64,000 nt of DNA from a virus: the IMG/VR virus record IMGVR_UViG_3300007735_000798, positions 40,737 to 104,736 of that record; one strand, given 5' to 3'. The notes under the pieces are model-generated. The model was not told where the DNA came from, did not search any database, and was given only the letters and a program-made list of their open reading frames with translations. The first letter of the stretch is position 1, and each line of letters opens with the position of its first letter. The position numbers and the translations under genes are program-made. Positions 4,021 to 24,244 of this stretch are shown here, one piece after another.

Positions 4021-4059
4021 AACCTTTTACCTTTTATATTATATCCTTTACTGTATAAT

Positions 4060-5964: not shown

Positions 5965-7574
5965 ATTAAAATATCTCCTTGATAACTATAATTTTCTGTT
6001 ATTTCATATATTTTTGAGAAAGCATCTTTTTTAATAGTTCTTTTTTCTAACAAGTAATTTTTATTTAATATATTATATACAGTTTTAATTCTTTGTAATT
6101 CTGAATTAACTTCGCTAATTGCGTAATCAATATTTTTATCTGGTTTCGCAACAGCAGATATATTTAACTCTAGTTGCGCGAGATTTGCACAATTTATATC
6201 TTGAATATTATGCTCTCTTTTTTGGGTAATAGATGATTTTGGTACATAAATAGATATTGATGGATTATATTTTAAACTAGACTTCATTGTAATTACATTA
6301 TCTGAAAAAGGTTTTCTTTTATCAGACCAAGAAGCTGTATATTTAATTTCGGCACCATATTCATTAAAAGTAATTGATTCCGTCAGTGGCTGTGAATAAA
6401 GACTACGACCAGTAATTTCTTTTTTATATTCAGTATTAGCCAAATTAAAAGCATTAAAATTACCACTATAATAATCTTTTACTAATCCCCATCTCGTATT
6501 AACGTCTCCATATTTTCCAAAAATTGTGGCATCTAATTTTACAGTAGTAATATTTTTTATAGGATCGGTAGTTAAATCAACATTATAATTATTTGTAATA
6601 TTAGATAATAAGTCGCTATTATAAGTTAAATTAAAATTTAATTTTTGATTATTGAATTCTTCTTGTACTGATTGGGTAATAGGATTTGAATTTAATGTTG
6701 TACCAAACGTTTTTAATGAAGCCTCGTTTGCTATATTATAAAAATTATAGTCAAAAAATCCTGATCTTAAATTATTAGAAGTTGTCCCAGTCACAATATT
6801 ATTACTTAAAGACCCATCAATTTTAACAGTAATAAGCCCATCTTCAATTCCAGAAGAAATATCTAAATTATAATCAAGAACTGCATTCGCAGGTGACTCC
6901 AAAAAATTTGATTTAACATAAGACCCCTCCCAAGAATATGTACCATCAAATCTGTTTACTGTTTCCTTAATTGATTGTAATAAAAAATTAGAACCATTAC
7001 CCGTTTGAGCAAATATTGGCGTAATTTTATTATAATTTCCAGTTCTAGTTTTTACCCAATTTTTAGCACTTTCAATTGCATTTAAATTTCCAGTTTTTAA
7101 TCCTTTTGCGGATATACTATGTGTTAAATTAACAATAAACCCATTCTCTTCTGAAAAATCAATATTCTCTTCTGGGTCCGTTACTCCATAATATTCGGTA
7201 AAAAGACCACTTTCATATATTTCAAAATCAATTGTAAAAGGTAAGATTCCATAAAATAATCCTTCATCCGTTTTAATTGAATCAATAATCACGTTATTGC
7301 CAGAAAATAAATTTTCAGAATTTTCATTAATAACTAAAGTACCATAATTATTACTTAATCTATTAACAAGTAAATTCAAACCACTATTTAATTCATAAAA
7401 AGACAATTGTCCTAAATTTTTTCCAGTAATTTGACCATTTAAAGTCATTTTAGTGACTTGATTCCATTTAGTATTAAAATTAATAAAATCTTGATTTATA
7501 GAAATAAAAGGGGTCGGTGATATACCATCAAATAAATCAGTATCATTATATAATATTTTGATATTATTATTCAT
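5961..7574 (-). CDS. Tail structural protein
   Basis: 537 aa; overlaps both neighbours; repeat style (INKFDG/VNRFDG) shared with 7574..9544. Confidence 0.5.
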   Translation of the reverse strand: MNNNIKILYNDTDLFDGISPTPFISINQDFINFNTKWNQVTKMTLNGQITGKNLGQLSFYELNSGLNLLVNRLSNNYGTLVINENSENLFSGNNVIIDSIKTDEGLFYGILPFTIDFEIYESGLFTEYYGVTDPEENIDFSEENGFIVNLTHSISAKGLKTGNLNAIESAKNWVKTRTGNYNKITPIFAQTGNGSNFLLQSIKETVNRFDGTYSWEGSYVKSNFLESPANAVLDYNLDISSGIEDGLITVKIDGSLSNNIVTGTTSNNLRSGFFDYNFYNIANEASLKTFGTTLNSNPITQSVQEEFNNQKLNFNLTYNSDLLSNITNNYNVDLTTDPIKNITTVKLDATIFGKYGDVNTRWGLVKDYYSGNFNAFNLANTEYKKEITGRSLYSQPLTESITFNEYGAEIKYTASWSDKRKPFSDNVITMKSSLKYNPSISIYVPKSSITQKREHNIQDINCANLAQLELNISAVAKPDKNIDYAISEVNSELQRIKTVYNILNKNYLLEKRTIKKDAFSKIYEITENYSYQGDILI

Positions 7575-9544
7575 TATGAATATTTATAAACCTCCTCATA
7601 ACCTATTATTTGCTCAATTTCATCAGAAGTAAAATTACAAGATTCTAAATATTTACCAGAATTTCCACCAAAATAATAATTTCTTAGTTGTGTTTTTAAA
7701 GTATCAAAATATAATAAACCATTAAAAATTCCCGTTTGACTTGTTAATCCGATATCTGCTTTACCTTCTATGGTAAAAGTACCCTGTTGTTTCAAATCTC
7801 TATTATGCACTAATTCATATTTATTATTTGGAATTATATATTTTTTAAAATAAGGTGTTAATTGCGTACCAGAACTTCCATCATCAGAATAAGTAATATC
7901 TAATTTTTTGATATCTCCTAAATCTGTTCTAATAGTTGGATCATCAGTATAAGTATAATTATAAGTAATTTTCCCATCAAATGGCGTTCTTGTTATTTGC
8001 TTATCAATTAAATTTATACCACTAGAAGCTTTTTCCAAAGCCTGTCCAGACCAAAAAGATTTTAATCTTGACTCTATTCCTGTTTTTACTACTGCCCAGC
8101 CAGTTTCTGCACTTAAATATTTTGCAGAATTAATAATAGAATTTTTTTCTCCAACACCAATTATTGAACCTTGTTCATTAACACTCCATATGAATTGCTC
8201 ATTACGATTTAATGTAGAAGTATAATCAAAAATATAATTTTTAGAAAACTTTTTATCATTATTAAATGACACATCATATTCAATATTTCCATCAAATTTA
8301 TTTATACGAACTGTTTTTTCAGCCAAAACAGTATTTAAAGCATCAATTATATTAAATTTATTTTTATAGGCTTGGAAAAAATTATTACAACGTAAATAGG
8401 CCCCAGTAATTTCTTTATTTAAACCAATTACGGCATTTTCATATAAACTTGGAATATTATTTTCAGCTTTAATTGAACAATTTTCACCTACATTAGCTAT
8501 ACCATTATTATCTAATGAAATATTTAAATTTCTATTTATAGAATAAGGTTCTAAATTATTGTTAGTAGAATAAGAAAAAGTTTTAGTAAATCCACATTTT
8601 CCGTTAATAATATCATAAGATTCATTTCTTAATACTTTATAAGTTCCTTCTTGTCTAGTCGAATAATTGTATTCTGATAAATTTATTGGAATAGACTTAT
8701 TTAATAATTCTACGGCTAAACTTTGAGCCAATGTTATTACATTAATATCTTTATTATCAGCATTATATTCAATATCTATAGAATGTGTTCCACCTAATAT
8801 TTTTGTATTATTATCAAAATCAAAAGTAAAATTTTCACTAAAACTTTTTATAAGATCAAATCTTTTATTTGATAAATTTAAAATATAATCATTATCAATA
8901 GCTAAAGTTGTATTACCCGCAAAACCTAAAAATCCAAGAAAAGTTATTCCAGTTGGTGGGGTCATTTCACTACTAGACCTTTGAAATCTTGGCGTATTAG
9001 AGGATCCAACCCCTGTAACAGGCGATATTCTCCATTGCGTACTAGACGCATTCCACAAAGCATATATATTTGTAGTATCATAATAAATTGGTCTAGAATT
9101 CAAAATTTGATTTGTTTTATAAAATTTATATCCCGAAAGATTTGGAGATGCACCAGAGGTATTACTAACTATATAATTTGAAGAAATGAATTCTTTTGAT
9201 ACTAAACTTTGTAAATTTGCTGTTGTATAAATTTCAATATCTGCATTATATTTTGTAGAACGTACCCAATTCCCTTCGTCAAAAGATAATGATGTAATTT
9301 TTCCGATACCAAAGTTTTGACCTTTTATTATTATATTATAAAAATTTTGGGCAATATTTTTAATTCTATTTACATCTGTAAAAATATCTTTAACTCCGAC
9401 CGTGTTAGTTAAATCTAAAACATAACCACGAATAGAAAGTGTTTTTGTCGTTGAGTATTGAAATGATTTTTCACCCAAAAAATTATTTTGGTGGTTATAT
9501 CCAAGCACCTCAATGTTATCTAAAATTAATGTTTCAAAAGACAT
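7574..9544 (-). CDS. Distal tail-type protein
   Basis: 656 aa, immediately after TMP. Confidence 0.5.
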   Translation of the reverse strand: MSFETLILDNIEVLGYNHQNNFLGEKSFQYSTTKTLSIRGYVLDLTNTVGVKDIFTDVNRIKNIAQNFYNIIIKGQNFGIGKITSLSFDEGNWVRSTKYNADIEIYTTANLQSLVSKEFISSNYIVSNTSGASPNLSGYKFYKTNQILNSRPIYYDTTNIYALWNASSTQWRISPVTGVGSSNTPRFQRSSSEMTPPTGITFLGFLGFAGNTTLAIDNDYILNLSNKRFDLIKSFSENFTFDFDNNTKILGGTHSIDIEYNADNKDINVITLAQSLAVELLNKSIPINLSEYNYSTRQEGTYKVLRNESYDIINGKCGFTKTFSYSTNNNLEPYSINRNLNISLDNNGIANVGENCSIKAENNIPSLYENAVIGLNKEITGAYLRCNNFFQAYKNKFNIIDALNTVLAEKTVRINKFDGNIEYDVSFNNDKKFSKNYIFDYTSTLNRNEQFIWSVNEQGSIIGVGEKNSIINSAKYLSAETGWAVVKTGIESRLKSFWSGQALEKASSGINLIDKQITRTPFDGKITYNYTYTDDPTIRTDLGDIKKLDITYSDDGSSGTQLTPYFKKYIIPNNKYELVHNRDLKQQGTFTIEGKADIGLTSQTGIFNGLLYFDTLKTQLRNYYFGGNSGKYLESCNFTSDEIEQIIGYEEVYKYS

Positions 9545-9550: not shown

Positions 9551-12500
9551 TTACGGTTTCGAAGGCGGAACTTTTATTCCCATTGCACTTTGTATTTCTC
9601 TAGTAATTCTTGGAATTTGTTTTTGAATTTCAGCCGCGACAGCTGAAGCTACATCTCCACCACTTTCGGCATTTACGACAAGATTAATTGGAGCATTTGT
9701 TGTATTTGCTATTGATGGTGAATTTATACCTTGATTATTTTGCATATTAGAAGCGTCTGTAGTATTTTGTAAACTAGATAAGGAAGTATTAAGATTTTGA
9801 ATTGCGCTTAGTAATGAAGTCAATGCGCTTGTATTTGTATCTAAACTTGATTCTATTTGCGTAAAAGACTGTTCTGAGACAGCAAAATTCGGAATATAAC
9901 CACGACTCATTAATCCCGCAGATTTTTGTCCTATCATTGAGTCATTCAATGCTTTATCTAATCCGCCATGATCAGCTATTGCAGATGCAAATGTAGGTTG
10001 ACTACTATTTCTAATATGTGGAAAAGGTTTAGTGCCATAAATAGCTTTATTACCACTAAGGCGTTCTTCAAGATCCATTACTGAATTTTTGTATGCAAAA
10101 TTTGGAATAAAGCCACCAGCCAAATTATCAGGTGTGGTCCCAGGTGGTAGTTTACCACTTTTTAAAAGTTTCTCTTTTAATTTTAGAGTTTGTGCTTCTG
10201 CAAATACAGTTCCATTCGTTGAAGATATGAGATCTGGTATCATAGCACCAGTAGTTAGTAGATCTTTTCCAGCCCCAATACCTAGACTAGTAATCGCCCC
10301 ATAAACAGCCGCTAATGGATTTTTTCCGATAGCTAGACCACTAGCGGCCCCACCAACAGCAGTTGAGAATATTTTTTCGAGTTGATCAATATAGGGGTTT
10401 TCCGATTTTTTTCCACCATGAAATAAATTATCTAATGCATATTGAGTACTAGCTTCCGCACCAATACCAATGGCTCCAGATTTAAATATATTTTTAGCGC
10501 TATTCGCTACCGAAGCAAGTTTTGTTGTACTATTAACTTGGAATCTATTCCAAATATCTTCAAAAAATGGAATAAGGCTATCGAGAGTATCTTCTAATCC
10601 AATAGTTCTACCAAATTTCGCATTTTTATTTTCTTCTGCGAAATTTGGAATAAAGCCTTTTGCCATACCTATGGCTTTTTGCATATTTCTTGTCAATACG
10701 GCTGTTTGACCACTTCCCCCAAAATTATCAACAAGTTTTTCTCCACTATTAATAAAAGCAGGAGATCCATTTAAATTTGGAATAAATTGTGGTCGATCTC
10801 CAGGTTTTGCCCCTCCAACTCCACGACCGATATCTCGAGATTCTTTATTGTATCCAGGTAAAAATCCTTTTGCATTTGATGTCGACTCTACAGATTTATA
10901 TTTTGCTATTGGTATATAAGGAGTTGGATTTCCAGGCTCCCCTGTTCGTTCTAAAATTTGTTTTAATATATTGTTTGTAATATTAATTGCTTGTACCGTA
11001 GGATCGCTTGAAAGTATTATATCATCTTTATAACTTGTCAGCATCTTTTCTAATGCTTGTTTTTCTTTGGTGTCGCTTGTAGTTTTTATTTTATCACGAA
11101 TTTCTTGTAACAGACTTTCATTTGTTACACCAAGCGCTTGCGCTACTTGGATTTTTGCAATGAGTTCTTCTCCACCCAGCGCTTGTGTTTGTTTTAATGC
11201 GGTTAGAAGCTCTGTTTTAAATTGATCAGGTAAATTTTGATTGCCTTGAACCTGTTTTGTCAATAATTGTATTTTATTAGTAAGATTTTGAGATAAACCA
11301 GCTACAATTTCTTTATAAATTTGACTGTTGGCATCTGGTGTATATCCAGTAAGTTCTTGTAAAGATTGAACATATTGTAAAGCATTACGTCCATATTTTG
11401 GTAATAATTCTTTTCTAGCTCTTTCTGCTTCTGATCCTTGATATCTATATTCACCAAATTGATTAGTTCTAAATACCCCTTTAGTATTTAATGCAGCAAC
11501 TGTATTAGCTGACTTCGCAACTTTATCAAAAGCACTTTCTCCATATTTGGGTGGATTTATAAATTCTTCAATGCCACCGCCAAAATTTTGAGCTTGTTTA
11601 ATTGCATCCACAAGTCTTTTTTGAGTAGTTTCTTGTGCAAGTTTAACTTGTTTTTCTTGTAGCAATTTGGCGGCTTCTTCCGCTTTATCATTTCCCTTAG
11701 ATGTTATACCAATTAGCTCACTTAATTTGTCTTCAAGTGGTTTTCCAAAAAAACCAAGATTATTCAATAATGGAGTAAATATTTCCGATAAATATTCAGG
11801 CTGTAAATTTTTCTTATCTATAATTTCAGAGTTGATTTTTTCTATAAATGCGTCTATAACTGGAGATTTACCATTTTCTGAAATGTTAAGTCTAGTTCTT
11901 AAGTTTTTATCACTGTCTAATTGTTCTTTTGTCGGTAGGACAGCATCATTTATGGCTGTCGCCATCTCAACCATTATATCATCAACTGATTGTTCAAAAT
12001 CAATATTTAATTTTGCAAACTCAGATTTTAGTTCAAAATCTTTTGTCATGCGAGATTCCTGCCCAGTAAGTTGTGATATAAGTTGTGCTGGATTTGTAAA
12101 TTGTTCAGTGTACGAAAATTCTCGAGCAAAACTTCTCTTTTTTTGTTCTATAACTATTGATTTTTTTGCCAAATCAATATTTTTTTGCAATGATTTAATC
12201 ATTGCTTCATTAGCTTTAGCAGCACTTAATTGTGCATTCTCTGTATCTCTTAAGGCTTGTGCATATTGATTAGAAGATGTTACATTTTGTCTAGTAGCAT
12301 AATTAGCATCACTAGCAGCCCTCTGAAGAACTATGAGTGTATCGAGATAATCCTGATTAGTTCGTTTTGCAGCATTTATGGTACTTTCTATAAATTCCGC
12401 GCTTCCTACTACACCTCCCAATGAGTCTTCTAATATTGTTTGTAAATCTTTAACTTTTTCTTCTAATGGGCGGGCATCTTTTTTATATTCTCCAGTGTCA

Positions 12501-15500
12501 GGATTTACGCCAGTTAATAACCCTAATTTTTTACCCGTTTCTTCGTCTAATTTTTTTAAAATAGGCAATGCCTCTTCTCCCTTTTTACCCTGTAAAGCCA
12601 TTCCAATGAATGTATCTCCAAGAAGTTTTATATTTTTTTCAACATCAGCGGTATCTGTTCCCCTAAATAAATAGTTATCTCGTCTACTAGCTAATTCACT
12701 AACCTTCTCGACATTAGCTCTATTTTCCTCTGCGCGTTGTTTTTCTCCTCTTATTTTTGCCATTTCTGCTTGTTGCGCAGTTTTTCCTTGTTTGCTTACA
12801 ATTCTTGCCTGATCTTCTGGTGAAAAATCTGCAAGAGCAGCGGCATATTCATCTTGGGCCTGTTTTACTTTTTGTGGATTTGGAACGGCTTCACTTAAAG
12901 CATTTTTTAAATTTTCGCTAGCAGTTGTTAATCTAGCTGAAGCATCATTAAATTTTGTTAATTCTTGACTAGCTTTTTCATGTGCGGCAATCGCTTCTGG
13001 TAATGTATTATTAAGCTCACTAAAATAATCATTCGCAGCCATAACTCCTCCAGCTATAAGCCCAATCGCGCCACCCGCAGCAGCCCCATAAGGACCAAAA
13101 GCCAGTCCTAATTGAGCACCAGTAGCTCCTAAACTTAGTGCTTGTCCCGCACCAGTAACAGCTGCCGCCGTTGCTCGTCCTTGCGGACTTGTCTGTGAAA
13201 TAGTATTTTTAATAGTGGCCGCAAGAATTGGAGCACCAATTGCTATTGCACTTCCATATGCATCCGCAGCAGCACCAAATTTTTTTACACCTTTGGCTGA
13301 ATCACCCAATGCTTGAAGATTTTGTCTATATTGATTTGTTGTTCCACTTAATACATAACTAAGTCCAACTAATTGAATACTTAACGCACCAAGTGCTGAA
13401 CTAGTACTTGTAGGCTCTTCTGCATAATTTGGTACAAAACCGCGAGAATACATTCCAATACCTTTTCGCTCGCGCCCAATAGCATCTTTTAATCCATTTG
13501 GTTCATCGCGTGTATTTGTCACAGCAATTGGGTTTCCATTTTTATCAAAATGTGCACGAATTTGAGAAACTGGAACGCCACGATTAGTAGAAGCAAAATT
13601 TGGAATAAAACCTTTCGCCATTCCTCTACTTAAAAATGCTGGAATATCTTTTTCAAAAATTCTACCAGGACCATTAGCTTGTTTAATTGGCCAAACAATT
13701 TGATCTTTACTTAAAGGTAGTCCATAAACAGAGGCACCACCAGTCTCCATATCTGGAAGTAGTTCTGAACTTTTTAGTTTATCCCTATTATATCTTACTA
13801 ACCAAGAACTTTGTTTTCTAGCTGAAGCCCAATTTTTTGCACGACCAATATTTTGTTTATAAGCTTGCCTATCGCTCATTTTTTCCCCTGGTCGGGAAAG
13901 AGCATCCCACATGTAAGTTCCAGAGCCACCAAAATATTCCATAGCAGATTGGTCAGAAGATCTATTTCGGAAGGCCCATCCTTTACCGAATTTAGATAAC
14001 ATCATTTTTAATTCTTTGTCATCTACGGCTCTTACGAGTGGTGCTGCAAAATTTGGAATAAAACCGCGCGCATAAATTGGAAAATCTTCTTCTCTTTTTA
14101 GTTGGCCTTTATTTTCTACATATTTTCTAACCATTTGACTATCAAAAGCGATACCCTTGCCACCATGAGTTCTAGATAATCTAAATAAAACTCTTTGAAT
14201 ATCAAATTCTTTTCCTGGAAATTTTTTTAATAATAATTGGTAGACTTTATCATCTACAATTCTTTTTTTAGGGAAGGTAATTTGTCCATAAGCTCCTTTA
14301 TAACCTTCTTGTTCTTCATCTGGAGAGGCAAATGCTTGGGCAACTTTTTTATTTTTAGAAGTGCTCATCATTCGCCAATTAACATCAGTCTCAAAATCTT
14401 GAGAAACTTGATCAAAAATAGCATCTTTAATCCCAGTAGGTTCAAAATCATCACCAGGAGTACCTAACATAGTAAAATCTTTATGTCTATAATCGTCTTT
14501 TCTACCAGCTCTTAGATTAAAAATACTTTGTTTATTTAATTTTTTAAAATCTTTTCCAGGAACTGAAACGCCACGATATAATTTTTCTGTTTGTTCTGAT
14601 CTGCCTAATTTTTTAATTATAGATAAATATTCTCTTAAAATTTGAGCATCAATTGCTTGGGATTTAAAATTAGGATTAGTATTAATATCTTTACGTCTTA
14701 GTGCTAAATCTTTACCAGTAGCTCTTGGTAAATCTTTAAAGTCAATACCACCCAAAAATTTTGGTGATGCAAAATTTGGAATAAAACCAAAAGCAGCTCC
14801 AGGCCTACGAAGAAACTCCATTTCTTTCATTTTTGTGGCTTGAGATTTAAAACCCATTTTTAACGCACGTTCTCCACGAGAACTTCTAGCAAATTGAGTA
14901 ACTTGATCAAAATCGTTTTTTGTCAAACCATTTTCTTCAAATTGTTTTTGAACATATTTCCAATCTCCGATTTTTAATGCATCGACATTAAAAGATCTCC
15001 CAAGCCAACCTTCACCCAACGCTCTAGATAAAGCTTCAATTTTAGCACGACCCTTTAGTGGGAATCCAGGTTGTTTTAGAAAAGCGTCTAAACCAGAAGT
15101 ATTAACGCCCAATTTTGTTGCGGCTTTTATATAAGCATTATTCGATAAACCACTACCCTCCGATAACTTAGTAGATATATTAGGATTAGTTATTCTACTA
15201 TTTATAATTTCTATTAATTTTGAATTTGCAAAATTTGGAACAAAACCAGCAGCCATACCTTTTGATCTACTAATTCTTGCCATTTCTTCTTTAATTGCTT
15301 TTTCTAGTTGTGGTCCTCTTCTTAGATTTTGTCCTTGAAGATTTTTTAAAGCTTCTGTTCTTAATGCTTGTGATTGCTTATAACCAGCACCACTTTTTAC
15401 TTGCTTTACTTCTCCAACTTTAGCTTCTTGTAGTAACTTGCTCATTACATCATTAACTAATTCTGGAGAATATTTAGCATCATACATTCCAGGAGCACCA

Positions 15501-18445
15501 TGAAATAGATTTCTTAGTTTAGGGGTTATTCTATTTTGACGAAAATCAATTCCTGCATTTTGAGAAGTTTTTTGTAAATTTTGTTGAAGTAAAGTAAGTA
15601 AACCACCTTCAAAAGCAACGCCAACAGCCCCTTTTGCCGCACCAAAATTTGGAAGGTCTTGTGCTGATTTTAAGAAATTACCCCCGCCAATTGCTTGACC
15701 AAATTGATTTGCCTCACGAACTAATAGGTCACCTAAATTTTTATCTAAATCTGGAAGTTCGCCCTTAAGAACTTGCTTATTAATTCCAGCTACGGGAATT
15801 AAACCTTTATATTGTTGTCCTAAATAACTTGCTGTTGCTGGGGTCATCGAATATCCTTCAGAAACCCCTGGATGAATTAGAGAAACAACTTTGCCTTTTA
15901 ATGCTGGAGAAGTTGTTGTATCTCCAAGATCAATCAAATTTTTTCCTTGCGCAAAATTTGGAATAAAACCAGAAGCACGATTTTTAAATTTTGATGCAAT
16001 TATATTTGCAGCAGAAGCTCGCACTTTAGGATCGTTAAAATTTTTACCTTTTCCAGCAACATTTCCAAAAAGAGTTTTTCTATCAATATTTCTAACAGAA
16101 TCAATTAGAATGTTTGATAAAAATAAAGAATCTCCTTTTTCGAGACCAGAATTTTTAAAAACTGAAGAATTAGCAACGCTAGGATTTTTCTTTAAAATTG
16201 CCCCAACACCAGCACGTAAATTTACTATTTTATCACGATTACCATCTCCTGGAACTAAAATTGATCCACCACTTCCAGGTGGAATTACTTGATTTCCAAG
16301 AATTTGTGACCCCGAAAGTCTTAATATTTTAGATATATAACTAGCTTTATTACCTTCAGATTCGCTTAATTTTGCATCTCCATATAATGTTCTTCTATTA
16401 ATACCAAGAAGATTTTTAACTTCTGGATTTACTCTTGCGCTAGATAATACGTTTGGTGCAAAATCTATAATATCAGAATCTTCTAAATAAGCTTTTTTAA
16501 GACCTAATGATAAAGCAATAGCATTGTCAAAAACTTTACCAGCAGCAAAACTTTTTTGATATTGAGATATATTTTTTTCATTTGCAAAATTTGGAATATA
16601 TCCTTTCGCCGCCATTTGTACACCATTTCCATACATTGGAATAACCATTGAATCACCATTACTACCAACTCCAGGATATTCAATTTCTTGGTTATTCATT
16701 ACAAATTTTTTACCACCGATTGTACCTTGCGACATGTGTGGCCGAACAGAAGGAGTTGCACCTAAAGCAATTGCCTGTGCTTTTTCAATTTGCTTATCCG
16801 AAGCAAAATTTGGAATATAACCAGCGGCTTTACCAGTTTTTTTCGTTGGCGCTATTGGTACTCCGCCAGTAACACGAACTCCAGCACCATAAAACGCTTT
16901 AGAAATTTGCGCTGCCACCGCAGCTTGTTTTTGTAATTCAACAGTTTGTTTTTGTAAATTTGCTAACAAACTATTAGCGGCAGCATTCAAACCCTGCTCA
17001 CCTTTTAAAGCAAGTTCAAGAAGCTGTGGATTTTTAGATAAAATTTGATTGATACTTTGTTGTAAACTTTGTTGTTGTACTGCGGCCTGATTTAAACCAA
17101 GAAGTTGTTGGACACTTCCAGTTGCAAATTTCCCTAAATCACGAAAAAGTTTAAGTAATACTCCCCCAATAATTGCTAAACCAGGACCCGCAATAAATTG
17201 AGCCAAACCATCTATAATACCTTTACCAAGTGCAGATCCAACTCCAGTTCCTTCAGATTCGTTTACCCCACCCAATATTTTATTAGCTCCACCGACAACA
17301 CGTTCGAATGCTGGACCGAGTAAACGGTTTCCAGCCGTTGCCGCTAATTGTGTGGCATTTTGTTTTAATGTATTAATTTGTGCGGCATAAGTTTTATTTA
17401 GCGCGTCATTTCTTTTAACGGCTTCGTCTGTAGAACTAGCTGCAACATTTAAAGCGCTATTATAAATAGAATATTCTTTACCTAAATCAGCAAGAGCGGC
17501 TTTTAAAATGTTAATTTGAAAAACACCACCAACCTGTTCGGCTACATAAGCTTGTTGTTGCGCTCCAAGAGTATCATAAACCTTACCTAAATCTTGCAAT
17601 AATTGAATTGTAGATTTTAATTGTCCAGAACTATCAGTAGTACTTATTCCTAAACTTCCTAAAAGATCTTGAACCTTACCACGTTCTAAACGTGTAAAAA
17701 TTGTTTTAAATGAGTTACCAATTACAGCGCCACCGCGTGCAGTAGTTTGCTGTGCTGATGTGACAATAGCAATAAGTTCATTAAGTGAAACCCCAGATTG
17801 TGCAGCACTACTACCAACACGACTAATAGCTTCTGCAAGATCCGCCGAACTAACTGCGAAAGCAGCATCAACATTAGCAAATTTATTTACAACTTCACTA
17901 GCGGTTACAGCTTGACTCGCAAAAGAATTGACTGCGGCAGTAAGGGCTTCAACACTTTTTGCCGCATCAAGACCACTTAAACGTGAAAGAATAAGAGCTT
18001 CATTAGTACGTTTTAATGTTTCTGCGACACCCAAACCTTGACGAGAAAATTCTGTAGCTGCTTTGGCTACTTCTTGAAACCCCTGTCCAGTATTTTTAGC
18101 AATATTAAACAATTCACCACCAAATTTTTGTAATTGTGAGGCTGAAACATTTAATATAACATTAATATCTTGTAAAGATTTTTGTACTTCAATAGTAGAT
18201 GAAACTAATGCGCTGAAAGCTTTTTCTAAACCATATATAATTCCAGCACTTGCTCCGAATGCGATAACACGGGCATTAGATGCATCTAATGATTTTGTAA
18301 ATTCATTAACTTGCCCAGTAATACGCCCCAAAGGCTGATCGCCTTTAGTTTTTAAGTTAATAGAATAAACTTTATTGACAGTTCTTTGAATATCTCTGTC
18401 TAATTGCCTAGTATTTCCACCAATATCTAATGTAATAGCAGCCAT
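9551..18445 (-). CDS. Tape measure protein with repeat-delimited internal cargo domains
   Basis: 2964 aa; TP901-type TMP core at the N-terminus (EFSRQG, LAEAISRVG, GAVIGNSFKTIFTRL); follows tail tube and two chaperones; 11 GFIPNFA-type repeats. Confidence 0.9.
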   Translation of the reverse strand: MAAITLDIGGNTRQLDRDIQRTVNKVYSINLKTKGDQPLGRITGQVNEFTKSLDASNARVIAFGASAGIIYGLEKAFSALVSSTIEVQKSLQDINVILNVSASQLQKFGGELFNIAKNTGQGFQEVAKAATEFSRQGLGVAETLKRTNEALILSRLSGLDAAKSVEALTAAVNSFASQAVTASEVVNKFANVDAAFAVSSADLAEAISRVGSSAAQSGVSLNELIAIVTSAQQTTARGGAVIGNSFKTIFTRLERGKVQDLLGSLGISTTDSSGQLKSTIQLLQDLGKVYDTLGAQQQAYVAEQVGGVFQINILKAALADLGKEYSIYNSALNVAASSTDEAVKRNDALNKTYAAQINTLKQNATQLAATAGNRLLGPAFERVVGGANKILGGVNESEGTGVGSALGKGIIDGLAQFIAGPGLAIIGGVLLKLFRDLGKFATGSVQQLLGLNQAAVQQQSLQQSINQILSKNPQLLELALKGEQGLNAAANSLLANLQKQTVELQKQAAVAAQISKAFYGAGVRVTGGVPIAPTKKTGKAAGYIPNFASDKQIEKAQAIALGATPSVRPHMSQGTIGGKKFVMNNQEIEYPGVGSNGDSMVIPMYGNGVQMAAKGYIPNFANEKNISQYQKSFAAGKVFDNAIALSLGLKKAYLEDSDIIDFAPNVLSSARVNPEVKNLLGINRRTLYGDAKLSESEGNKASYISKILRLSGSQILGNQVIPPGSGGSILVPGDGNRDKIVNLRAGVGAILKKNPSVANSSVFKNSGLEKGDSLFLSNILIDSVRNIDRKTLFGNVAGKGKNFNDPKVRASAANIIASKFKNRASGFIPNFAQGKNLIDLGDTTTSPALKGKVVSLIHPGVSEGYSMTPATASYLGQQYKGLIPVAGINKQVLKGELPDLDKNLGDLLVREANQFGQAIGGGNFLKSAQDLPNFGAAKGAVGVAFEGGLLTLLQQNLQKTSQNAGIDFRQNRITPKLRNLFHGAPGMYDAKYSPELVNDVMSKLLQEAKVGEVKQVKSGAGYKQSQALRTEALKNLQGQNLRRGPQLEKAIKEEMARISRSKGMAAGFVPNFANSKLIEIINSRITNPNISTKLSEGSGLSNNAYIKAATKLGVNTSGLDAFLKQPGFPLKGRAKIEALSRALGEGWLGRSFNVDALKIGDWKYVQKQFEENGLTKNDFDQVTQFARSSRGERALKMGFKSQATKMKEMEFLRRPGAAFGFIPNFASPKFLGGIDFKDLPRATGKDLALRRKDINTNPNFKSQAIDAQILREYLSIIKKLGRSEQTEKLYRGVSVPGKDFKKLNKQSIFNLRAGRKDDYRHKDFTMLGTPGDDFEPTGIKDAIFDQVSQDFETDVNWRMMSTSKNKKVAQAFASPDEEQEGYKGAYGQITFPKKRIVDDKVYQLLLKKFPGKEFDIQRVLFRLSRTHGGKGIAFDSQMVRKYVENKGQLKREEDFPIYARGFIPNFAAPLVRAVDDKELKMMLSKFGKGWAFRNRSSDQSAMEYFGGSGTYMWDALSRPGEKMSDRQAYKQNIGRAKNWASARKQSSWLVRYNRDKLKSSELLPDMETGGASVYGLPLSKDQIVWPIKQANGPGRIFEKDIPAFLSRGMAKGFIPNFASTNRGVPVSQIRAHFDKNGNPIAVTNTRDEPNGLKDAIGRERKGIGMYSRGFVPNYAEEPTSTSSALGALSIQLVGLSYVLSGTTNQYRQNLQALGDSAKGVKKFGAAADAYGSAIAIGAPILAATIKNTISQTSPQGRATAAAVTGAGQALSLGATGAQLGLAFGPYGAAAGGAIGLIAGGVMAANDYFSELNNTLPEAIAAHEKASQELTKFNDASARLTTASENLKNALSEAVPNPQKVKQAQDEYAAALADFSPEDQARIVSKQGKTAQQAEMAKIRGEKQRAEENRANVEKVSELASRRDNYLFRGTDTADVEKNIKLLGDTFIGMALQGKKGEEALPILKKLDEETGKKLGLLTGVNPDTGEYKKDARPLEEKVKDLQTILEDSLGGVVGSAEFIESTINAAKRTNQDYLDTLIVLQRAASDANYATRQNVTSSNQYAQALRDTENAQLSAAKANEAMIKSLQKNIDLAKKSIVIEQKKRSFAREFSYTEQFTNPAQLISQLTGQESRMTKDFELKSEFAKLNIDFEQSVDDIMVEMATAINDAVLPTKEQLDSDKNLRTRLNISENGKSPVIDAFIEKINSEIIDKKNLQPEYLSEIFTPLLNNLGFFGKPLEDKLSELIGITSKGNDKAEEAAKLLQEKQVKLAQETTQKRLVDAIKQAQNFGGGIEEFINPPKYGESAFDKVAKSANTVAALNTKGVFRTNQFGEYRYQGSEAERARKELLPKYGRNALQYVQSLQELTGYTPDANSQIYKEIVAGLSQNLTNKIQLLTKQVQGNQNLPDQFKTELLTALKQTQALGGEELIAKIQVAQALGVTNESLLQEIRDKIKTTSDTKEKQALEKMLTSYKDDIILSSDPTVQAINITNNILKQILERTGEPGNPTPYIPIAKYKSVESTSNAKGFLPGYNKESRDIGRGVGGAKPGDRPQFIPNLNGSPAFINSGEKLVDNFGGSGQTAVLTRNMQKAIGMAKGFIPNFAEENKNAKFGRTIGLEDTLDSLIPFFEDIWNRFQVNSTTKLASVANSAKNIFKSGAIGIGAEASTQYALDNLFHGGKKSENPYIDQLEKIFSTAVGGAASGLAIGKNPLAAVYGAITSLGIGAGKDLLTTGAMIPDLISSTNGTVFAEAQTLKLKEKLLKSGKLPPGTTPDNLAGGFIPNFAYKNSVMDLEERLSGNKAIYGTKPFPHIRNSSQPTFASAIADHGGLDKALNDSMIGQKSAGLMSRGYIPNFAVSEQSFTQIESSLDTNTSALTSLLSAIQNLNTSLSSLQNTTDASNMQNNQGINSPSIANTTNAPINLVVNAESGGDVASAVAAEIQKQIPRITREIQSAMGIKVPPSKP

Positions 18446-18483: not shown

Positions 18484-19503
18484 TTAATTATTTTCGCGCG
18501 CTTTAAAATAATCAGATTTTTCAAGTGTTCCACCCTGTTCTGCGGCTAATTCTAATAAACTTTTACCCTTTAATTTTTCTATTTTTACACCTAATTGATT
18601 TAAATCTTCTTTTGTAGCCCCCACAAAACTATGAACAGAATTATCTCCATTTCCAGATTTTCTATTTTTAGATTTTATACCAGGTATATTTGATTGATTA
18701 TCAACCCATTGAACAAATTTATCTGGATCATTTACTATTTCATCTAAAATTGGTTTACCATTTTCTGCATGATTTTTTATTATATTTCTATACATTTTAC
18801 CATACAAAATAAGATCAATTTGATATTTTGTACAATTAACCGTTGATTTTCCCCAAAAACTGTAAGCATCTTCGCTTAAATATACAAGATTTTGAAAGAA
18901 ACCACTTGCAGCAATTCTTTTAATATTATCAGTATTAAATATATTTGAATATGTTTCAAAAGCATTTTTAATTTTATCTAGATCCTCTTCTTTTAAATCA
19001 TAATATTCTTCCCTATTATTGAATAGTTTTTCTGAAAATTCTATATTTTTATAACTAAAAAAAAATAATAAATCTTCCGTTAATTTACTATTTGCGTAAT
19101 CTTCCAAAGTATAACCAACAATTTCTCTACGTTCTTTTGTATAAGTAATTAAAATAGCTTGATTTTGTTTTATTTGTTTATCAATTTGCTCTTTCTGGGA
19201 TGATAAAAATAATTTATCTCTAGTTTTATATAAATTTTGTATAGTTTTTTTTAAAAGAGAAATTGTAGATTCTTTTTCTGATGCCCACCAGCCACCTTTA
19301 ATAGCAATCTCTATTTTTTCTTTTTCTGATTGGAGGCCCTTTTTTTGTCCATCACTAATAAAAATATCATAATTAGTATATACTGAAAAATGTTCAGCGA
19401 TACTTGGATGTTTAAAATAAATATATGATTTATTTATTTTTTCTTCAGAAAAGCCTCTGCATATTTGGCTGTAAATTCTACCATATTCTGCATTTTTATC
19501 CAC
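18484..19503 (-). CDS. Putative tail assembly chaperone 2
   Basis: 339 aa; GTG start; directly before TMP. Confidence 0.5.
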   Translation of the reverse strand: MDKNAEYGRIYSQICRGFSEEKINKSYIYFKHPSIAEHFSVYTNYDIFISDGQKKGLQSEKEKIEIAIKGGWWASEKESTISLLKKTIQNLYKTRDKLFLSSQKEQIDKQIKQNQAILITYTKERREIVGYTLEDYANSKLTEDLLFFFSYKNIEFSEKLFNNREEYYDLKEEDLDKIKNAFETYSNIFNTDNIKRIAASGFFQNLVYLSEDAYSFWGKSTVNCTKYQIDLILYGKMYRNIIKNHAENGKPILDEIVNDPDKFVQWVDNQSNIPGIKSKNRKSGNGDNSVHSFVGATKEDLNQLGVKIEKLKGKSLLELAAEQGGTLEKSDYFKARENN

Positions 19504-19504
19504 A

Positions 19505-20305
19505 TTAACTTGGTTTTATTTCTTCTACGAGAACACTATTTTCTTTAACATTTTCTTCAATTTTATTTTCGATGGGATTTTCTTCAATATTGCTTACAGT
19601 ATTCTCTTTCAAGAAGTTTTTATCAAAAGCTGCAAAATCTTCATTTGTATCTACACGACCTAGAAACCAAAGCGTGACTAAATAAGTTATTCTACGAATA
19701 ACACCTAATAAAAATTCATACTTATTTTCTTCTTCTTCTTCAAAACTATCATATTGCAAAAGTTTTTCTTCAAATGTATCACCTTTAAAAATAGATTTAT
19801 AATTATCTCCATCTTTTTCGTATGAAAGATTCATGACCCACCAAAGAATTGCACGATTACGAGCTTTTGCTTCCGCAGTATTTTCAAAAATACTTATTTG
19901 AGAAGCTTCAAAATTTTGAATAGCTTTACGAATATCATCAAGATTATTAATTAATTCATCAGAACGAATTTTTTCTGCATCCGTCCTTTCAGACTCTCCT
20001 TTGATTAGAATTGATTGTAATTCAAAAGAAAGATCACGAAATTTTAAAAGAAGATTTCCATATTCTTCGCGTTCTTGATCACTAATACTACCGCCCCCAT
20101 TGGAAAGAATAGTACCCCAAGCAGCTTTTGGTAACACCCCTGCCTTTGCAAAACGCGATGTTTCGGTGGCATAAAAAAGTTCTCCATCTTCACGTAAACG
20201 ACGATTTGGTTTGAGTAACCCAAATTTTTTAACGATAGTTTCTTGACTACCATCTTCTTTTTTTACAACATTGTTTGCCTCAAATTCGTATAGCCATTTA
20301 TTCAT
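19505..20305 (-). CDS. Putative tail assembly chaperone 1
   Basis: 266 aa, helical and acidic; between tail tube and TMP. Confidence 0.5.
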   Translation of the reverse strand: MNKWLYEFEANNVVKKEDGSQETIVKKFGLLKPNRRLREDGELFYATETSRFAKAGVLPKAAWGTILSNGGGSISDQEREEYGNLLLKFRDLSFELQSILIKGESERTDAEKIRSDELINNLDDIRKAIQNFEASQISIFENTAEAKARNRAILWWVMNLSYEKDGDNYKSIFKGDTFEEKLLQYDSFEEEEENKYEFLLGVIRRITYLVTLWFLGRVDTNEDFAAFDKNFLKENTVSNIEENPIENKIEENVKENSVLVEEIKPS

Positions 20306-20314
20306 ATATTTATA

Positions 20315-20539
20315 TTATTTTCCTTTTAAAGTAAAATCAAAATTATTTAATTGTTCTTCTATATTTCTATGACAATTATTACCATGATCAAGAACACGTT
20401 TTCTTAATCGCTGAAATTCTTCTTCATTAATTTTATTATCACTTTTTAAATCTTCTATACAATATAAAAAACTTAAATATAACTTTTTAATTTCTTTATA
20501 AATAAGACTTTTAACAAAATTATCAATATTGATATCCAT
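20315..20539 (-). CDS. Hypothetical protein
   Basis: 74 aa; GTGTAA motif upstream. Confidence 0.55.
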   Translation of the reverse strand: MDINIDNFVKSLIYKEIKKLYLSFLYCIEDLKSDNKINEEEFQRLRKRVLDHGNNCHRNIEEQLNNFDFTLKGK

Positions 20540-20586
20540 ATATAGAACCTTGAGTAACCTTTTACCTAATAAGGTTTACACCAAAT

Positions 20587-20616
20587 AAAAAAAATGGGCA
20601 CCAAAAGGTGCCCATT
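20587..20616 (-). terminator. Intrinsic terminator after tail tube gene
   Basis: AATGGGCACC-4 nt-GGTGCCCATT hairpin followed by a T tract on the minus strand. Confidence 0.8.
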
Positions 20617-20634
20617 AATTTTAATATAATTATA

Positions 20635-21771
20635 TTATACTCCTTGCGGTGTTGGAGGAGGATTATAACTGCCAGATAAAAAGATACCTCTATCTGTTTG
20701 TTGAGCACTACCAACCTGTACTTCAAATGTCGCACTCATTGTAGCCCCATCACCGATAGCAGAACTAAAGTTTTGGCTTGTTAATTTAGCGCCTCTAAAT
20801 TCATATGTAAGGGCATTGGCTCCAGTTCCGCCACAAGCAGGTTTTTTCATTGTAATTACGAAATTATTTAAATTTGTATCACAAAGTAATGACGATAGAT
20901 CTCCAGTGCCGTTTGATAAGTCGCCAACTTGAGCATTCATAGTTAATGTAGCTGTAAGTGGGAAATCAATTTCACGAGAGAATGCGTAGCGACTACCTAA
21001 TTTTTGAAGTGGTGTACGCCCAATATCAACTGCTAATGAAAAGTCTTGAACTTTTAAATCAACAGGGTCAAAACCTAATAAACCAGTTGGTGTAAACGTA
21101 ATATCACCAGGAAGCAATGCATTTGGAATTGAAGATCCAGTCATGGAAGTAGCTGCTGGAAGTTTAAATTTAACTCCTGTTAATAGTTGACCATCAGCGG
21201 CATTAACACCTGGAGCAACTGCCCCACTCCCACCTGGACTTGCGGCATTAAGATCTCCATAAATACGAACATTCAATCCTTCAATTTCAACGTCAGCACT
21301 TGGAATATCACCAACAGCAGCATTAACTGTATATGAAGTTAAGAAGCCATTTCCAATACCAATTACGCCAGTTCTTGCGCTAGTATAGCCAGCAGCATCA
21401 TTACCTTCGTCAGCAATCATTAAATAATAATTTTTTTGATCAGTTGCTCTTGTCAAAAGTCCAGAAATAATAGAAGCATTACCAGCCGAACCAGTCGTCG
21501 CACTAGTTAAACCCAAAAGTCTTTCATTAAGACCGTCAGTCAAATAGTATGAAAAACTTGCTGTTACAGTTGGAGCTTCTACCTCTAAACGATCAATAGC
21601 GGCTAAATTTCCAAATTGATTGACATCTTGGAAAGTGCGTGTAAAATCTTCATCGAAACTTTGAACACGACCTAATTGTTGAACGGCTCCAAGACCAGTT
21701 TGTTGTCCAGTTGGAGAGACTTGACTCGCATAAAGAGCCAATACATTGTAAATTGTTCTATTTCTTGCCAT
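20635..21771 (-). CDS. Major tail tube protein
   Basis: 378 aa, G/T/S/A-rich; position after tail terminator; own terminator. Confidence 0.7.
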   Translation of the reverse strand: MARNRTIYNVLALYASQVSPTGQQTGLGAVQQLGRVQSFDEDFTRTFQDVNQFGNLAAIDRLEVEAPTVTASFSYYLTDGLNERLLGLTSATTGSAGNASIISGLLTRATDQKNYYLMIADEGNDAAGYTSARTGVIGIGNGFLTSYTVNAAVGDIPSADVEIEGLNVRIYGDLNAASPGGSGAVAPGVNAADGQLLTGVKFKLPAATSMTGSSIPNALLPGDITFTPTGLLGFDPVDLKVQDFSLAVDIGRTPLQKLGSRYAFSREIDFPLTATLTMNAQVGDLSNGTGDLSSLLCDTNLNNFVITMKKPACGGTGANALTYEFRGAKLTSQNFSSAIGDGATMSATFEVQVGSAQQTDRGIFLSGSYNPPPTPQGV

Positions 21772-21814
21772 AATTATAATTACATCTTATTTTTTTGTTA
21801 GACACTCGATATTT

Positions 21815-22675
21815 TTAATATACTCTTGGTTGTCTAATACTTTTTAGTTCAAAATCTGCTATTGCAGCTATTGTTTTTTTATTTATATATAAATTTTCTG
21901 ATTCGTCAAATTTTGTAATATCAACTTTATGAATATAAACTAATTGATTTTGATTTTGCATTTTACACATATTTATATAATTATAATTATTTCCATCTTT
22001 AAAATCTCCAAAATAGTTAAAAGGTAAATCTTCTGGATTAAATACAGGAAATACTTTTCTGGCAGAATCAGCAAGAATTGATGTTAAACTATCTAAAGAA
22101 AAACTATCTTTTGCTAAAATTATACATCTTATCCAATAATTTGATTCATCTAATCCGCCAAAAGCAAAAGGTTCATTTTCATTTGTTTTTAATTTTATGA
22201 ATACGCATGGATATGGTAATTCTAAATAACCAAGAGCGCCAGTAACTCTTGATGTTTGCGGAGTTAATGAATAAGATTTTTCAAACATCAAACGGTCTTC
22301 ACGTTCATCTGTATAATATAAATTAAATTCTTTAAAACTATATTGCGTAGTAAAATTTTGATTTGTTGGAATTTGATTTCCAGAAAAAATAATTCTTCCA
22401 TGATTATAATCAATCGCTAATCCATTCTGACCACGAGAAATAAACTGCGAACCAGAAACTATTCCACTTGGGATATAAGCATTTGGAATACTAGAATCAT
22501 AAATCCATTGTTTAAATGGAGATCCATAAACAGATGATGTCAATTGAAAATTAGGATCTTCTGTTTCATATAGTTTGCCACTATAAGTAATAAAAGCCTC
22601 TCCACGACTTAAAATTTCATGATCTAACCACAAATAAAAACTTGATGTAAGATTATTAATATAAGAAGCTTTCAT
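21815..22675 (-). CDS. Tail terminator/completion protein
   Basis: 286 aa; YPCVFI motif; directly before tail tube. Confidence 0.5.
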   Translation of the reverse strand: MKASYINNLTSSFYLWLDHEILSRGEAFITYSGKLYETEDPNFQLTSSVYGSPFKQWIYDSSIPNAYIPSGIVSGSQFISRGQNGLAIDYNHGRIIFSGNQIPTNQNFTTQYSFKEFNLYYTDEREDRLMFEKSYSLTPQTSRVTGALGYLELPYPCVFIKLKTNENEPFAFGGLDESNYWIRCIILAKDSFSLDSLTSILADSARKVFPVFNPEDLPFNYFGDFKDGNNYNYINMCKMQNQNQLVYIHKVDITKFDESENLYINKKTIAAIADFELKSIRQPRVY

Positions 22676-23253
22676 TTAATTTTTCCTCCTAATTTTTTTA
22701 TGAAATTATTATATAATGGAGTAAAATATGATATTCTAGTAAATACTTTTCCACGAAAATTTTTTCTTGACTGAATTGCTTTTCCAGAACGCGAATTTTC
22801 AAATTTACCATATAGATAAGCACCTAATCCAGATATTGATTTTTCTACTCCCCATAGCCAACTTCTATTTTCCCATGGCATTTTACTTGCATTACCGAAA
22901 TCTTCTTTTGAAGGAACATAAATATTTACTACAAAATTATTTTTATTAAATAATATTTTTTTATTAATCTTTATATTATTCAATAATGACAATATTGGAG
23001 CAATTGGGTTCGAACTATTAGAAAAACCAATGAATGAAAATAAATTTCCATAACCACCTAAAGTTCCAGATAAATTACTAGCATTTTCTCCACCCTCAAT
23101 TTCTTGAGTAACAGGATGTTCTTTAAATTTTGTAATTAGAATATTTTTTTCAGCTTCTACCGAAGCATTGGCAATTTGTAAAACTTTTTTTTGAACATTT
23201 GAATTTTCAAAAATTATTTTTTTTAAAGCTTGTTTATCTATTTTTCCAGCCAT
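22672..23253 (-). CDS. Neck/tail completion protein
   Basis: 193 aa, basic; neck-cluster position. Confidence 0.45.
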   Translation of the reverse strand: MAGKIDKQALKKIIFENSNVQKKVLQIANASVEAEKNILITKFKEHPVTQEIEGGENASNLSGTLGGYGNLFSFIGFSNSSNPIAPILSLLNNIKINKKILFNKNNFVVNIYVPSKEDFGNASKMPWENRSWLWGVEKSISGLGAYLYGKFENSRSGKAIQSRKNFRGKVFTRISYFTPLYNNFIKKLGGKIK

Positions 23254-23254
23254 A

Positions 23255-23686
23255 TTAATTACTTTCTTCTAGGTAGATAGTATAAAAGTTAGGATCAAAA
23301 AGCCCATGTGGTTCACTTGTTCCAAAAAATTGAACGTTACGACCATCAATTTCTACACTTTTCCAGTCATCAAACCAACCAATATCTTCTTTTTTAATTT
23401 TTAATCTTACAATGTTACCATGAACTTCTTCTTTAATATCTTTTTGACCTTTCAAATCGGATGGATCTAACCATTTAATTCTTGCGTCTATAACTCCACT
23501 AACTGGGGTATATTGTACTTCAATACCTTCTTGAGCATCTGTATATATGAAATTATAATTTAAATTTGTAGAAATTATTGTACGTTTAGGTGTTTTATAA
23601 ACTATAATTTTTCTAGAAAATGTATCATGAATATCATTAAATACATTATCATATAATAATTGATCAGCATCAGGAATAAGATTCAT
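23255..23686 (-). CDS. Head closure/stopper protein
   Basis: 143 aa, beta-rich (SVEIDGRNV); position. Confidence 0.45.
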   Translation of the reverse strand: MNLIPDADQLLYDNVFNDIHDTFSRKIIVYKTPKRTIISTNLNYNFIYTDAQEGIEVQYTPVSGVIDARIKWLDPSDLKGQKDIKEEVHGNIVRLKIKKEDIGWFDDWKSVEIDGRNVQFFGTSEPHGLFDPNFYTIYLEESN

Positions 23687-23687
23687 A

Positions 23688-24224: not shown

Positions 24225-24244
24225 ATAATATTTTACACAAAAAA

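Follow-up and report, generated by a model that had tools for sequence, protein, structure and literature searches.

A predicted tape measure protein with exchangeable, heptapeptide-bordered modules in a family of uncultured phages

A gene at positions 9551-18445, minus strand, of a 64,000-nucleotide stretch of phage DNA raises the question of why a tape measure protein (TMP) should be divided by eleven copies of one heptapeptide, and of what the segments between the copies might be for. The stretch (hereafter the window) covers positions 40,737 to 104,736 of the IMG/VR record IMGVR_UViG_3300007735_000798, which is 104,736 bp long with a CheckV completeness of 69%; its source is an uncultured, AT-rich large phage. 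The gene is the longest open reading frame (ORF) in the window, a single uninterrupted frame of 2964 aa, and its product is referred to as P0001; all parts of it described below are encoded on the minus strand. Comparison of P0001 with its relatives indicates that related phages swap modules at the motif peptide, and the tail probably carries an exchangeable kit of proteins into the host, with cutting and delivery as the steps that we infer.

The product is a predicted TMP, as an earlier reading of this DNA made from the letters alone (the sequence-only reading) had proposed, and falls in the TP901-1 type. PF10145 (PhageMin_Tail) matches aa 116-307 (E 1.9e-27, 96.9 bits vs a cut-off of 33.2), and 13 PHROG families of TMPs match P0001, every one within aa ~10-530; a PHROG search of the whole protein returned nothing except TMP families. 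Cultured phages (SPbeta-like and others) align to the N-terminal core only, at ~26% identity.

The heptapeptide and the family that carries it

A regular expression, G[FY][IV]PN[FY]A, applied to the translation of P0001 found 11 exact copies of the motif, to which two degenerate copies may be added, all at the places where the sequence-only reading had listed them. The motif is confined to the TMP. A six-frame scan of the window found none outside the TMP ORF, a search of the whole 104,736-bp record with a degenerate DNA pattern found none outside the TMP gene, and none was found in six frames in 1.17 Mb of sequence flanking the TMP genes of 79 related loci. In the literature library searched, no paper with the motif strings was found.

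A protein search with aa 530-1700 of P0001 recovered 197 giant TMP relatives, and a DNA scan of IMG/VR with an alignment as the query recovered 364 relatives on contigs of up to 178 kb; the same kind of scan with the single P0001 protein as the query gave no match, whereas the alignment query succeeded. Matches of the contig profile scan fell in mixed bins of metagenome-assembled genomes (MAGs; Proteobacteria, Marinimicrobia, Halobacteriovorax and Thermodesulfobacteriota), which are probably binned phage contigs, and no host is inferred from them. Almost all of the relatives carry the motif, usually near aa 540, 620 and beyond. A set of 189 non-redundant TMPs yields 768 strict copies plus 208 with one mismatch, as against 1 in shuffled sequences; the number per TMP ranges from 0 to 11, and P0001 ranks among the most motif-rich members. 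A sequence logo of 797 copies reads [K/P]-G-[K/A/F]-[A/S]-x-G-[F/Y]-[I/V]-P-N-[F/Y]-[A/S], with seven near-invariant positions past the last of which conservation ends abruptly, and with the 15 residues ahead of the motif enriched in K, R, G, S and A. The last position of the motif is the tolerant one: of the 208 copies with one mismatch, 126 differ there, with V, N, T or G as the commonest replacements. On these comparisons, the motif defines a large environmental family of predicted TMPs from uncultured phages.

Exchange of modules at the motif

The segments between motifs in the 189 TMPs cluster into 75 families, of which 37 are singletons, with module lengths of 41 to ~400 aa. They are arranged on a common plan, in which the core is followed by a slot-1 mini-domain, a variable module of ~200 aa, a domain of ~234 aa (family F0), more variable modules, a module of family F1 or F4, and the ruler. 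The fixed parts of the array are the universal mini-domain, a nearly universal E..D..(D/E)xK domain (two copies in P0001) and a closing mini-domain. The sequence-only reading had suggested that relatives be compared for fixed flanks and for modules varying in number and identity, and among the 189 TMPs this comparison gave a positive result.

The turnover is fast. Architecture is identical in 31% of TMP pairs whose cores are at least 95% identical, and in 3% of pairs with 80-90% core identity. Of the ends of similarity blocks found by BLAST, 44% come no farther than 5 aa from a motif, as compared with 4% of random positions, and the median distance from block end to motif is 8 aa vs 45 aa for random positions. 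Individual modules show the same behavior: module s5 of P0001 is 99% identical to aa 892-1125 of another TMP, P0004, the respective cores being 86% identical; s4 is 92% identical to its copy in P0002, where s5 comes before s4; and family F4, which forms module s11 near the C-terminus of P0001, is found in the N-proximal array of other TMPs. The motif itself is also gained and lost. Families F8 and F1 form one 200-aa segment without a motif in the related locus L001 (13349-13948) and in P0003, P0005, P0008 and P0009, and P0001 carries motif copy 7 at this junction (13442-14044), which argues that motifs come and go at fixed junctions. Likewise, the F0-F6 junction of P0010 is without the motif and both modules are kept. 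As far as comparison of sequences goes, related phages swap modules at the motif peptide.

The sequence-only reading had further proposed that the motif is a DNA homology joint, pointing to a 20-nt string conserved at the nucleotide level. This string has 11 matches at up to 3 mismatches, 4 of them exact and all at motif sites, where shuffles of the sequence lead one to expect 0.03. In favor of such a joint are the near-identity of the copies in P0001 (4 of 11 identical over 20 nt and 3 more differing at one base), the halting of similarity blocks between TMPs at the motif, and the differing orders and slots in which the modules appear. The near-identity, however, largely stems from AT-rich codon bias. 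Across 73 TMP genes, 255 motif copies have 168 distinct nucleotide versions, the synonymous codon usage of the motif is roughly that of the rest of the genes, and copies within a gene are hardly closer than copies in different genes (a mean of 2.62 vs 2.84 differences per 21 nt, with 16 of 300 permutations reaching the observed value); moreover, the amino acids of the motif are invariant though the cores diverge to ~40% identity. The many DNA versions, the ordinary codons and the small excess of similarity within genes indicate that selection acts on the peptide and not on the DNA, and this claim of the sequence-only reading is not upheld. The in-frame direct repeats of 17-21 nt amount to microhomology and may ease cassette exchange, as a side effect and not as the selected feature; any role as a homology joint at the DNA level is secondary at most.

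Layout of the array and contents of the modules

P0001 consists of an N-terminal core (aa 1-541), seven modules, s1-s7 (aa 549-1668, 50-234 aa each), a segment of 851 aa and a C-terminal array, s9-s12; written in families, it reads core-F2-F11-F0-F6-F21-F8-F1-[ruler]-F49-F4-F12. Modules s2-s7 are strongly basic (pI 9.7-10.4, net charge +4 to +13), and the ruler part has a pI of 5.6. The core (16823-18445) is 84-88% identical to that of the nearest relatives and 40-50% identical to that of distant ones. It is followed by motif copy 1 (GYIPNFA, aa 542-548, 16802-16822), the one that stands near aa 540 in nearly all relatives, and by the universal slot-1 mini-domain s1 (66 aa, 16604-16801), in which an alignment of 36 relatives (A6) shows invariant E, A, G, N, E and P and which has no Pfam match. 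The slot-1 and closing mini-domains had been considered as excisionase-like helix-turn-helix domains, an idea that was dropped when PF12728 gave no match. Motif copy 2 (GYIPNFA, aa 615-621, 16583-16603) separates s1 from s2 (204 aa, F11, pI 10.0, 15971-16582), and copy 3 (GFIPNFA, aa 826-832, 15950-15970) separates s2 from s3 (234 aa, F0, 15248-15949).

Module s3 is the nearly universal, enzyme-like domain. A profile hidden Markov model (HMM) of the F0 core detects that core in 176 of the 189 TMPs; among the 13 without a match, several are cut short by the end of their contig. In P0001, the model finds the core twice, in s3 (E 1.6e-30) and in s2 (aa 625-709, E 7e-17), and hhalign aligns F0 with F11 at 94-95%; the modules are therefore not all as unrelated to each other as the sequence-only reading had them, since the second and the third share a conserved core. 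Residues G942, F945, E946, D967, F981, K991 and K1003 are invariant in F0. Among them, E946 and D967, together with D989-x-K991, are invariant or nearly so in 28 sequences, at spacings of 21 and 22, and this order and spacing of E..D..(D/E)xK are those of restriction-endonuclease-like (PD-(D/E)xK) nucleases. F0 is thus a putative nuclease-like domain, a lead given by its active-site pattern. An AlphaFold2 model of s3 is alpha/beta in its fold and has a mean pLDDT of 90.3; in it, the first strand begins 5 residues past the motif; the description of the modules as globular is supported for s3, the module for which it was shown. Two runs of VIA-align gave lists filled by the C-terminal helical hairpin of s3 (181-233), so that the core was barely compared. 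Pfam gave no match for 28 F0 members, a profile search against the Protein Data Bank (PDB) reached no better than E 0.13, with unrelated proteins, and the best score in the Atlas was 0.77, with no relative. No free-standing F0 homolog of 109-506 aa was found.

Motif copy 4 (GFVPNFA, aa 1067-1073, 15227-15247) leads to s4 (146 aa, F6, 14789-15226), whose family has 15 members in slots 2-8 of other TMPs, and copy 5 (GFIPNFA, aa 1220-1226, 14768-14788) leads to s5 (234 aa, F21, 14066-14767), a candidate ADP-ribosyltransferase (ART). YRG, S-x-S and one late Glu (E238 of alignment A4) are invariant in its five members; the late motif, EED in P0001 and EKE in P0019 and P0044, lies ~10 residues before the next separator. 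The Atlas gave weak leads to ADPrib_exo_Tox and Mod_ADP_RT (0.89-0.91). No Pfam family matched s5 at E<=10, PF03496 at that threshold matched no part of the record, tblastn of s5 against phages gave nothing, and homologs of near its length were not found. A phmmer search of 1.84 billion representatives returned the P0004 TMP and P0122 only, and P0122, a motif-less repeat protein of 3857 aa that matched in 11 short stretches, was rejected as a probable compositional or repeat artefact. The reading of s5 as an ADP-ribosyltransferase is no more than a lead, from residue pattern and weak Atlas scores. Copy 6 (GFIPNFA, aa 1461-1467, 14045-14065) precedes s6 (144 aa, F8, 13613-14044), which has 13 family members at 77-92% identity in slots 1-6 and, like s4, has no Pfam or PDB match. 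Copy 7 (GFIPNFA, aa 1612-1618, 13592-13612) precedes s7 (50 aa, F1, 13442-13591), the conserved mini-domain that closes the array; its family has 93 members and is usually the last before the ruler.

Between motif copy 8 (GFVPNYA, aa 1669-1675, 13421-13441) and copy 9 (GFIPNFA, aa 2597-2603, 10637-10657), the spacing of ~45-235 aa ascribed to the inter-copy segments does not hold, for this gap contains no small module at its start but the 851-aa segment s8 (10868-13420), a hydrophobic stretch followed by a long acidic ruler part. Its first 155 aa (aa 1676-1830) are Gly/Ala-rich and hydrophobic (G+A 0.35, GRAVY +0.22), and the remainder (aa 1831-2526) is acidic with a pI of 5.6, a composition on which the ruler reading rests; s8 is 30-40% identical to the equivalent part of relatives. 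The two degenerate motifs, GFLPGYN (aa 2527-2533, 10847-10867) and QFIPNLN (aa 2554-2560, 10766-10786), were read from the translation and lie between s8 and copy 9. Module s10 (174 aa, singleton F49, 10115-10636) has Gly/Ala-rich stretches and looks, by eye, as if it might be membrane-active; it has no relatives among 120 TMPs examined. Copy 10 (GFIPNFA, aa 2778-2784, 10094-10114) is followed by s11 (64 aa, 9902-10093), 61-69% identical to N-proximal array modules of other TMPs, and copy 11 (GYIPNFA, aa 2849-2855, 9881-9901) by the conserved TMP C-terminus, s12 (109 aa, 9554-9880), 40-47% identical in 30 relatives. A Pfam search at E<=10 with ten single modules gave chance-level rows only.

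Relatives carry further cassettes, examples of which come from L023:13001-13510, L042:14618-16150, P0039, P0073, P0076, P0078 and P0080. Families F15 and F17, absent from P0001, are GNAT domains by Pfam; in P0073, the match scores 21.8 bits against a cut-off of 20.7, and 5 of 37 scanned members match. F16, also absent from P0001, has a Walker A sequence, GPSGSGKTT, with weak P-loop matches in the PDB; past these Walker-A-level matches, F10, F16, F17 and F25 gave nothing against PDB sequences. Patterns resembling that of F0, and hence nuclease-like, recur in other families of the variable slot: F10 shows GxxGE..DF..ExK, and F5 and F18 show D..EVK. By eye only, F14 (DGDS...RL..VDAIE) resembles staphylococcal nuclease (SNase) and F25 (DWDGT) a HAD phosphatase. 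The second half of F17 contains HExxH after a variant motif, GFVPNFL, in some relatives. As for the proposal that the modules are cargo effectors, the GNAT module of relatives above the Pfam threshold speaks for it, and the nuclease-, kinase- and ART-like readings consist of residue patterns only. As a side observation, a kinase together with a phosphatase in the same array would bring to mind the repair enzymes known as polynucleotide kinase-phosphatases.

Possible roles of the array, and its genomic setting

The reading preferred here, which we regard as evenly poised between right and wrong, is that of a polyvalent effector carrier built on a TMP, with the motif as a processing site (GFIPNF↓A). 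In such a carrier, the array would be held in the tail lumen and, toward the end of TMP ejection, would exit before the DNA; nucleic acids and proteins, of the host or incoming, would be the targets of its modules at a time before phage gene expression. The motif would be cut between the aromatic residue and the small one that follows (GFIPNF↓A/S), a cut that would release the modules from the ruler bound in the membrane. As known from T5, TMPs lie as trimers in the lumen of the tube, their C-terminus at the tip, and are driven out upon infection (PMC10038345). With the C-terminus at the tip, the N-proximal array would exit last, just before the DNA. In the neck of phage 80alpha, the TMP reportedly adjoins the DNA and the tail completion protein, to go by the title of a preprint.

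The motif has traits like those of a protease site, in that it is a conserved site at domain borders whose P side is conserved and whose P1' is small and tolerant (logo of 797 copies). A processing site is favored because six invariant residues are followed by a tolerant small one, as at P1', because the upstream linker is flexible, because the first strand of F0 begins so soon past the motif in the model, and because cleavage of the T5 and lambda TMPs falls at the edge of a domain. Under the bacterial N-end rule, a new N-terminal Ala or Ser would probably be stabilising, which a cut before Phe would not achieve. In T5, tail assembly includes a cut in the TMP pb2 after R1127, which separates off its enzymatic domain, and this domain stays in the tail (PMC10038345). 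T5 pb2 and lambda gpH are a precedent for the proposed processing in that the TMP is cut at a domain boundary, with an enzymatic domain on one side and the ruler on the other, both pieces remaining in the tail as trimers; pb2 differs in that it has a single site, a muralytic C-terminal domain and an unlike sequence, with no repeated heptapeptide or swappable cassettes. Short peptides also border variable domains in polymorphic toxins, as demarcation motifs (VENN in CdiA, DPxGL in Rhs), and in MARTX arrays; such peptides are recombination borders and, in Rhs and MARTX, also places of cleavage that releases domains, the MARTX sites having a hydrophobic P1 and a small P1'. The resemblance of the TMP motif to these is an analogy of logic only; they belong to bacterial secretion, have a known processing domain and show no sequence relation to it.

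A number of results weigh against this reading. No cleavage product was seen. Peptidase_S78, CLP_protease (ClpP) and Trypsin_2 had no match in the 69%-complete record, and no protease is among the 25 listed of the 58 Pfam families in the record, most proteins of which are family-less; in P0001 itself, no peptidase family matched at E<=0.1, nor any in its modules at E<=10, and none of the universal modules has an invariant Ser, Cys or His of the kind seen in proteases. The junctions without a motif noted above (F8-F1 in L001, F0-F6 in P0010) retain both modules, and their being tolerated argues that separation is not obligatory. With regard to the cargo, searches with s1-s7 and s9-s11 found no match in Pfam or among PDB sequences, Foldseek of the s3 model against PDB and BFVD gave nothing at E<=0.001, the AlphaFold2 model of s5, built on a 5-sequence alignment, has a mean pLDDT of 36.1 and is unusable, and the enzymatic activity of every module of P0001 is putative. 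The phage search found no cultured relative of the motif-bearing TMPs. Taken by itself, cleavage of the motif is given a little under an even chance, a docking or hinge role is thought possible but doubtful, and some other role rather unlikely.

It is tempting to go further and to take the heptapeptide as a portable cut-here signal, read by a universal part of the TMP (the N-terminal core, the slot-1 mini-domain or F0) or by a host protease, within a plug-and-play platform in which F0 would be a nuclease or DNA-end-handling enzyme of new fold. A cassette placed between two motifs would then be loaded in the lumen, ejected before the DNA and released in the host. This extended form of the carrier proposal is put forward as a speculation that may well prove wrong.

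Among the alternatives, the one that survives best, itself a tentative one, is that the motif stays uncut and serves as a docking or hinge peptide for a conserved partner, be it the electronegative lumen of the tube, the tail assembly chaperone or the two other TMP chains. The basic modules would then, on the same doubtful footing, be kept in register and assembly-competent in the tube and act tethered at the entry pore. The confinement of the motif to TMPs fits a tail-specific interaction over a general virion protease site, as does the failure to find a protease in the record, and motif-less junctions would be tolerated under this alternative too. The lumen of the tail tube is acidic, and both the K/R/G-rich basic linkers and the strongly basic modules would suit it. 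However, no partner for a docking motif was identified, and modules of 41 to ~400 aa mean that the motifs cannot fit a periodic tube lattice. The abrupt end of conservation on the C-terminal side and the F0 strand 5 residues on leave little room for a pocket, and the tolerant last position resembles a P1' site.

The Thermus phage P23-45 bears on both the docking alternative and the carrier reading. Its TMP, gp96, contains an N-terminal virion RNA polymerase that, as experiments showed, is active in the cell right after ejection, and the authors of that study suggest that it operates while still attached to the TMP pore (PMC10770324), which supports docking and counts against release by cleavage. 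The likeness to P0001 is that of a giant TMP with one or more extra domains in its N-terminal part, and the activity of the polymerase in the cell indicates that N-terminal cargo of a TMP can function. On the other hand, gp96 has one fused enzyme and no array, separator motif or reported exchange of cassettes.

It is improbable that the modules are structural filler or parts for envelope penetration (channel, cell-wall or membrane parts), with the motif as a structural repeat. The Pfam and PHROG support in P0001 is confined to the N-terminal core, F0 occurs inside TMPs only, s10 has its Gly/Ala-rich, possibly membrane-active appearance, and known TMP-embedded domains, such as that of T5 pb2, are mostly muralytic, all of which would agree with a structural role; but families of the GNAT, Walker-A and E..D..ExK types point to cytoplasmic-type chemistry, no peptidoglycan-hydrolase family was found in any scanned member, and the very fast turnover of cassettes is typical of conflict-related and not of structural parts. 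That the motif is mainly a DNA recombination joint, whose 20-21-nt sequence permits cassette swaps and whose peptide is incidental, is scarcely credible in view of the nucleotide comparisons given above.

To return to the effector carrier, its closest concept is the polyvalent protein (Iyer et al. 2017), in which one polypeptide joins numerous conflict domains (ART, GNAT, nucleases, kinases) that are unrelated and quickly reshuffled; it is proposed there that such proteins reach the host together with the DNA and are in part processed into units (PMC5512222). The likeness lies in one giant polypeptide with many unrelated domains that shuffle fast. TMPs, however, are never mentioned in Iyer et al. 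2017 (PMC5512222), in which the phage examples are head-packaged (MuF, Dar context) and no invariant heptapeptide between domains is described; moreover, polyvalent proteins are processed by an embedded zincin-like MPTase, whereas P0001 has no peptidase family match. Another comparison is offered by the Sle1 effectors of actinobacterial contractile injection systems (CIS), which have a TMP-like scaffold in a tail-like tube and an exchangeable functional domain, according to the abstract (PMC13277306). Sle1 proteins differ in having one C-terminal domain each and in belonging to a cellular CIS, and the abstract does not describe a separator motif.

If the effector carrier reading is right, a phage lineage widespread in the environment appears to hold a whole, rapidly exchanged kit of proteins in its tail ruler, which would be a new route of takeover before gene expression. 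Proteins delivered with the virion shape the first seconds of infection through anti-restriction, host shut-off and DNA protection, and the known cases are either packaged in the head, as with T4 Alt, P1 Dar and the N4 RNA polymerase, or single TMP fusions (P23-45). The ~75 mostly unannotated families would form a catalog of candidate anti-defense domains, and F0, with a confident model that matched no fold in the searches run, is a concrete target for biochemistry. If the motif is a processing or loading signal, chosen proteins could be loaded into phage tails.

With respect to the genomic setting, the large terminase (40185-42086) and a BppL_N lower-baseplate protein (37190-38218) are encoded on the same strand as the TMP; the latter lies between a 1391-aa ORF (32617-36792), which has only faint matches to baseplate or unknown PHROGs, and genes just downstream of the terminase. 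The flanks of the TMP gene, downstream (1384-9544; proteins of 878, 634, 537 and 656 aa) and upstream (18484-28249; 339, 266, 378 and 286 aa, and others), gave no PHROG or Pfam family, and the tail of this lineage is essentially unannotated. Among the upstream ORFs, those at 18484-19503, 19505-20305 and 20635-21771 are candidates for the chaperones and the tube. Exceptions in the otherwise family-less structural block are a gene resembling glycosyltransferases (28332-29486, phrog_2170), which runs on the opposite strand, and an endonuclease VII/HNH-like gene (29508-30101). The first 40 kb of the record encode a GDP-mannose dehydratase, epimerases, an aminotransferase and several glycosyltransferases, an assortment that suggests a sugar-modification pathway.

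The last part of the window, 50000-64000, differs from the rest in its GC content (45-50% vs ~30% elsewhere) and contains no ORF longer than 240 aa; alternative genetic codes were tried for it and open no longer frames. It contains genes for tRNA-Trp and tRNA-Lys at 61278-61425, ~11 copies of a GC-rich hairpin, and ~15-20 dispersed promoter-like units, each composed of an A-run, TTGC or TTGAC, ~9 nt and TGTGGTATnnT, with an ATG a few bases on. These features give the region the look of a series of many small early genes, every one of them provided with a separate promoter and terminator.

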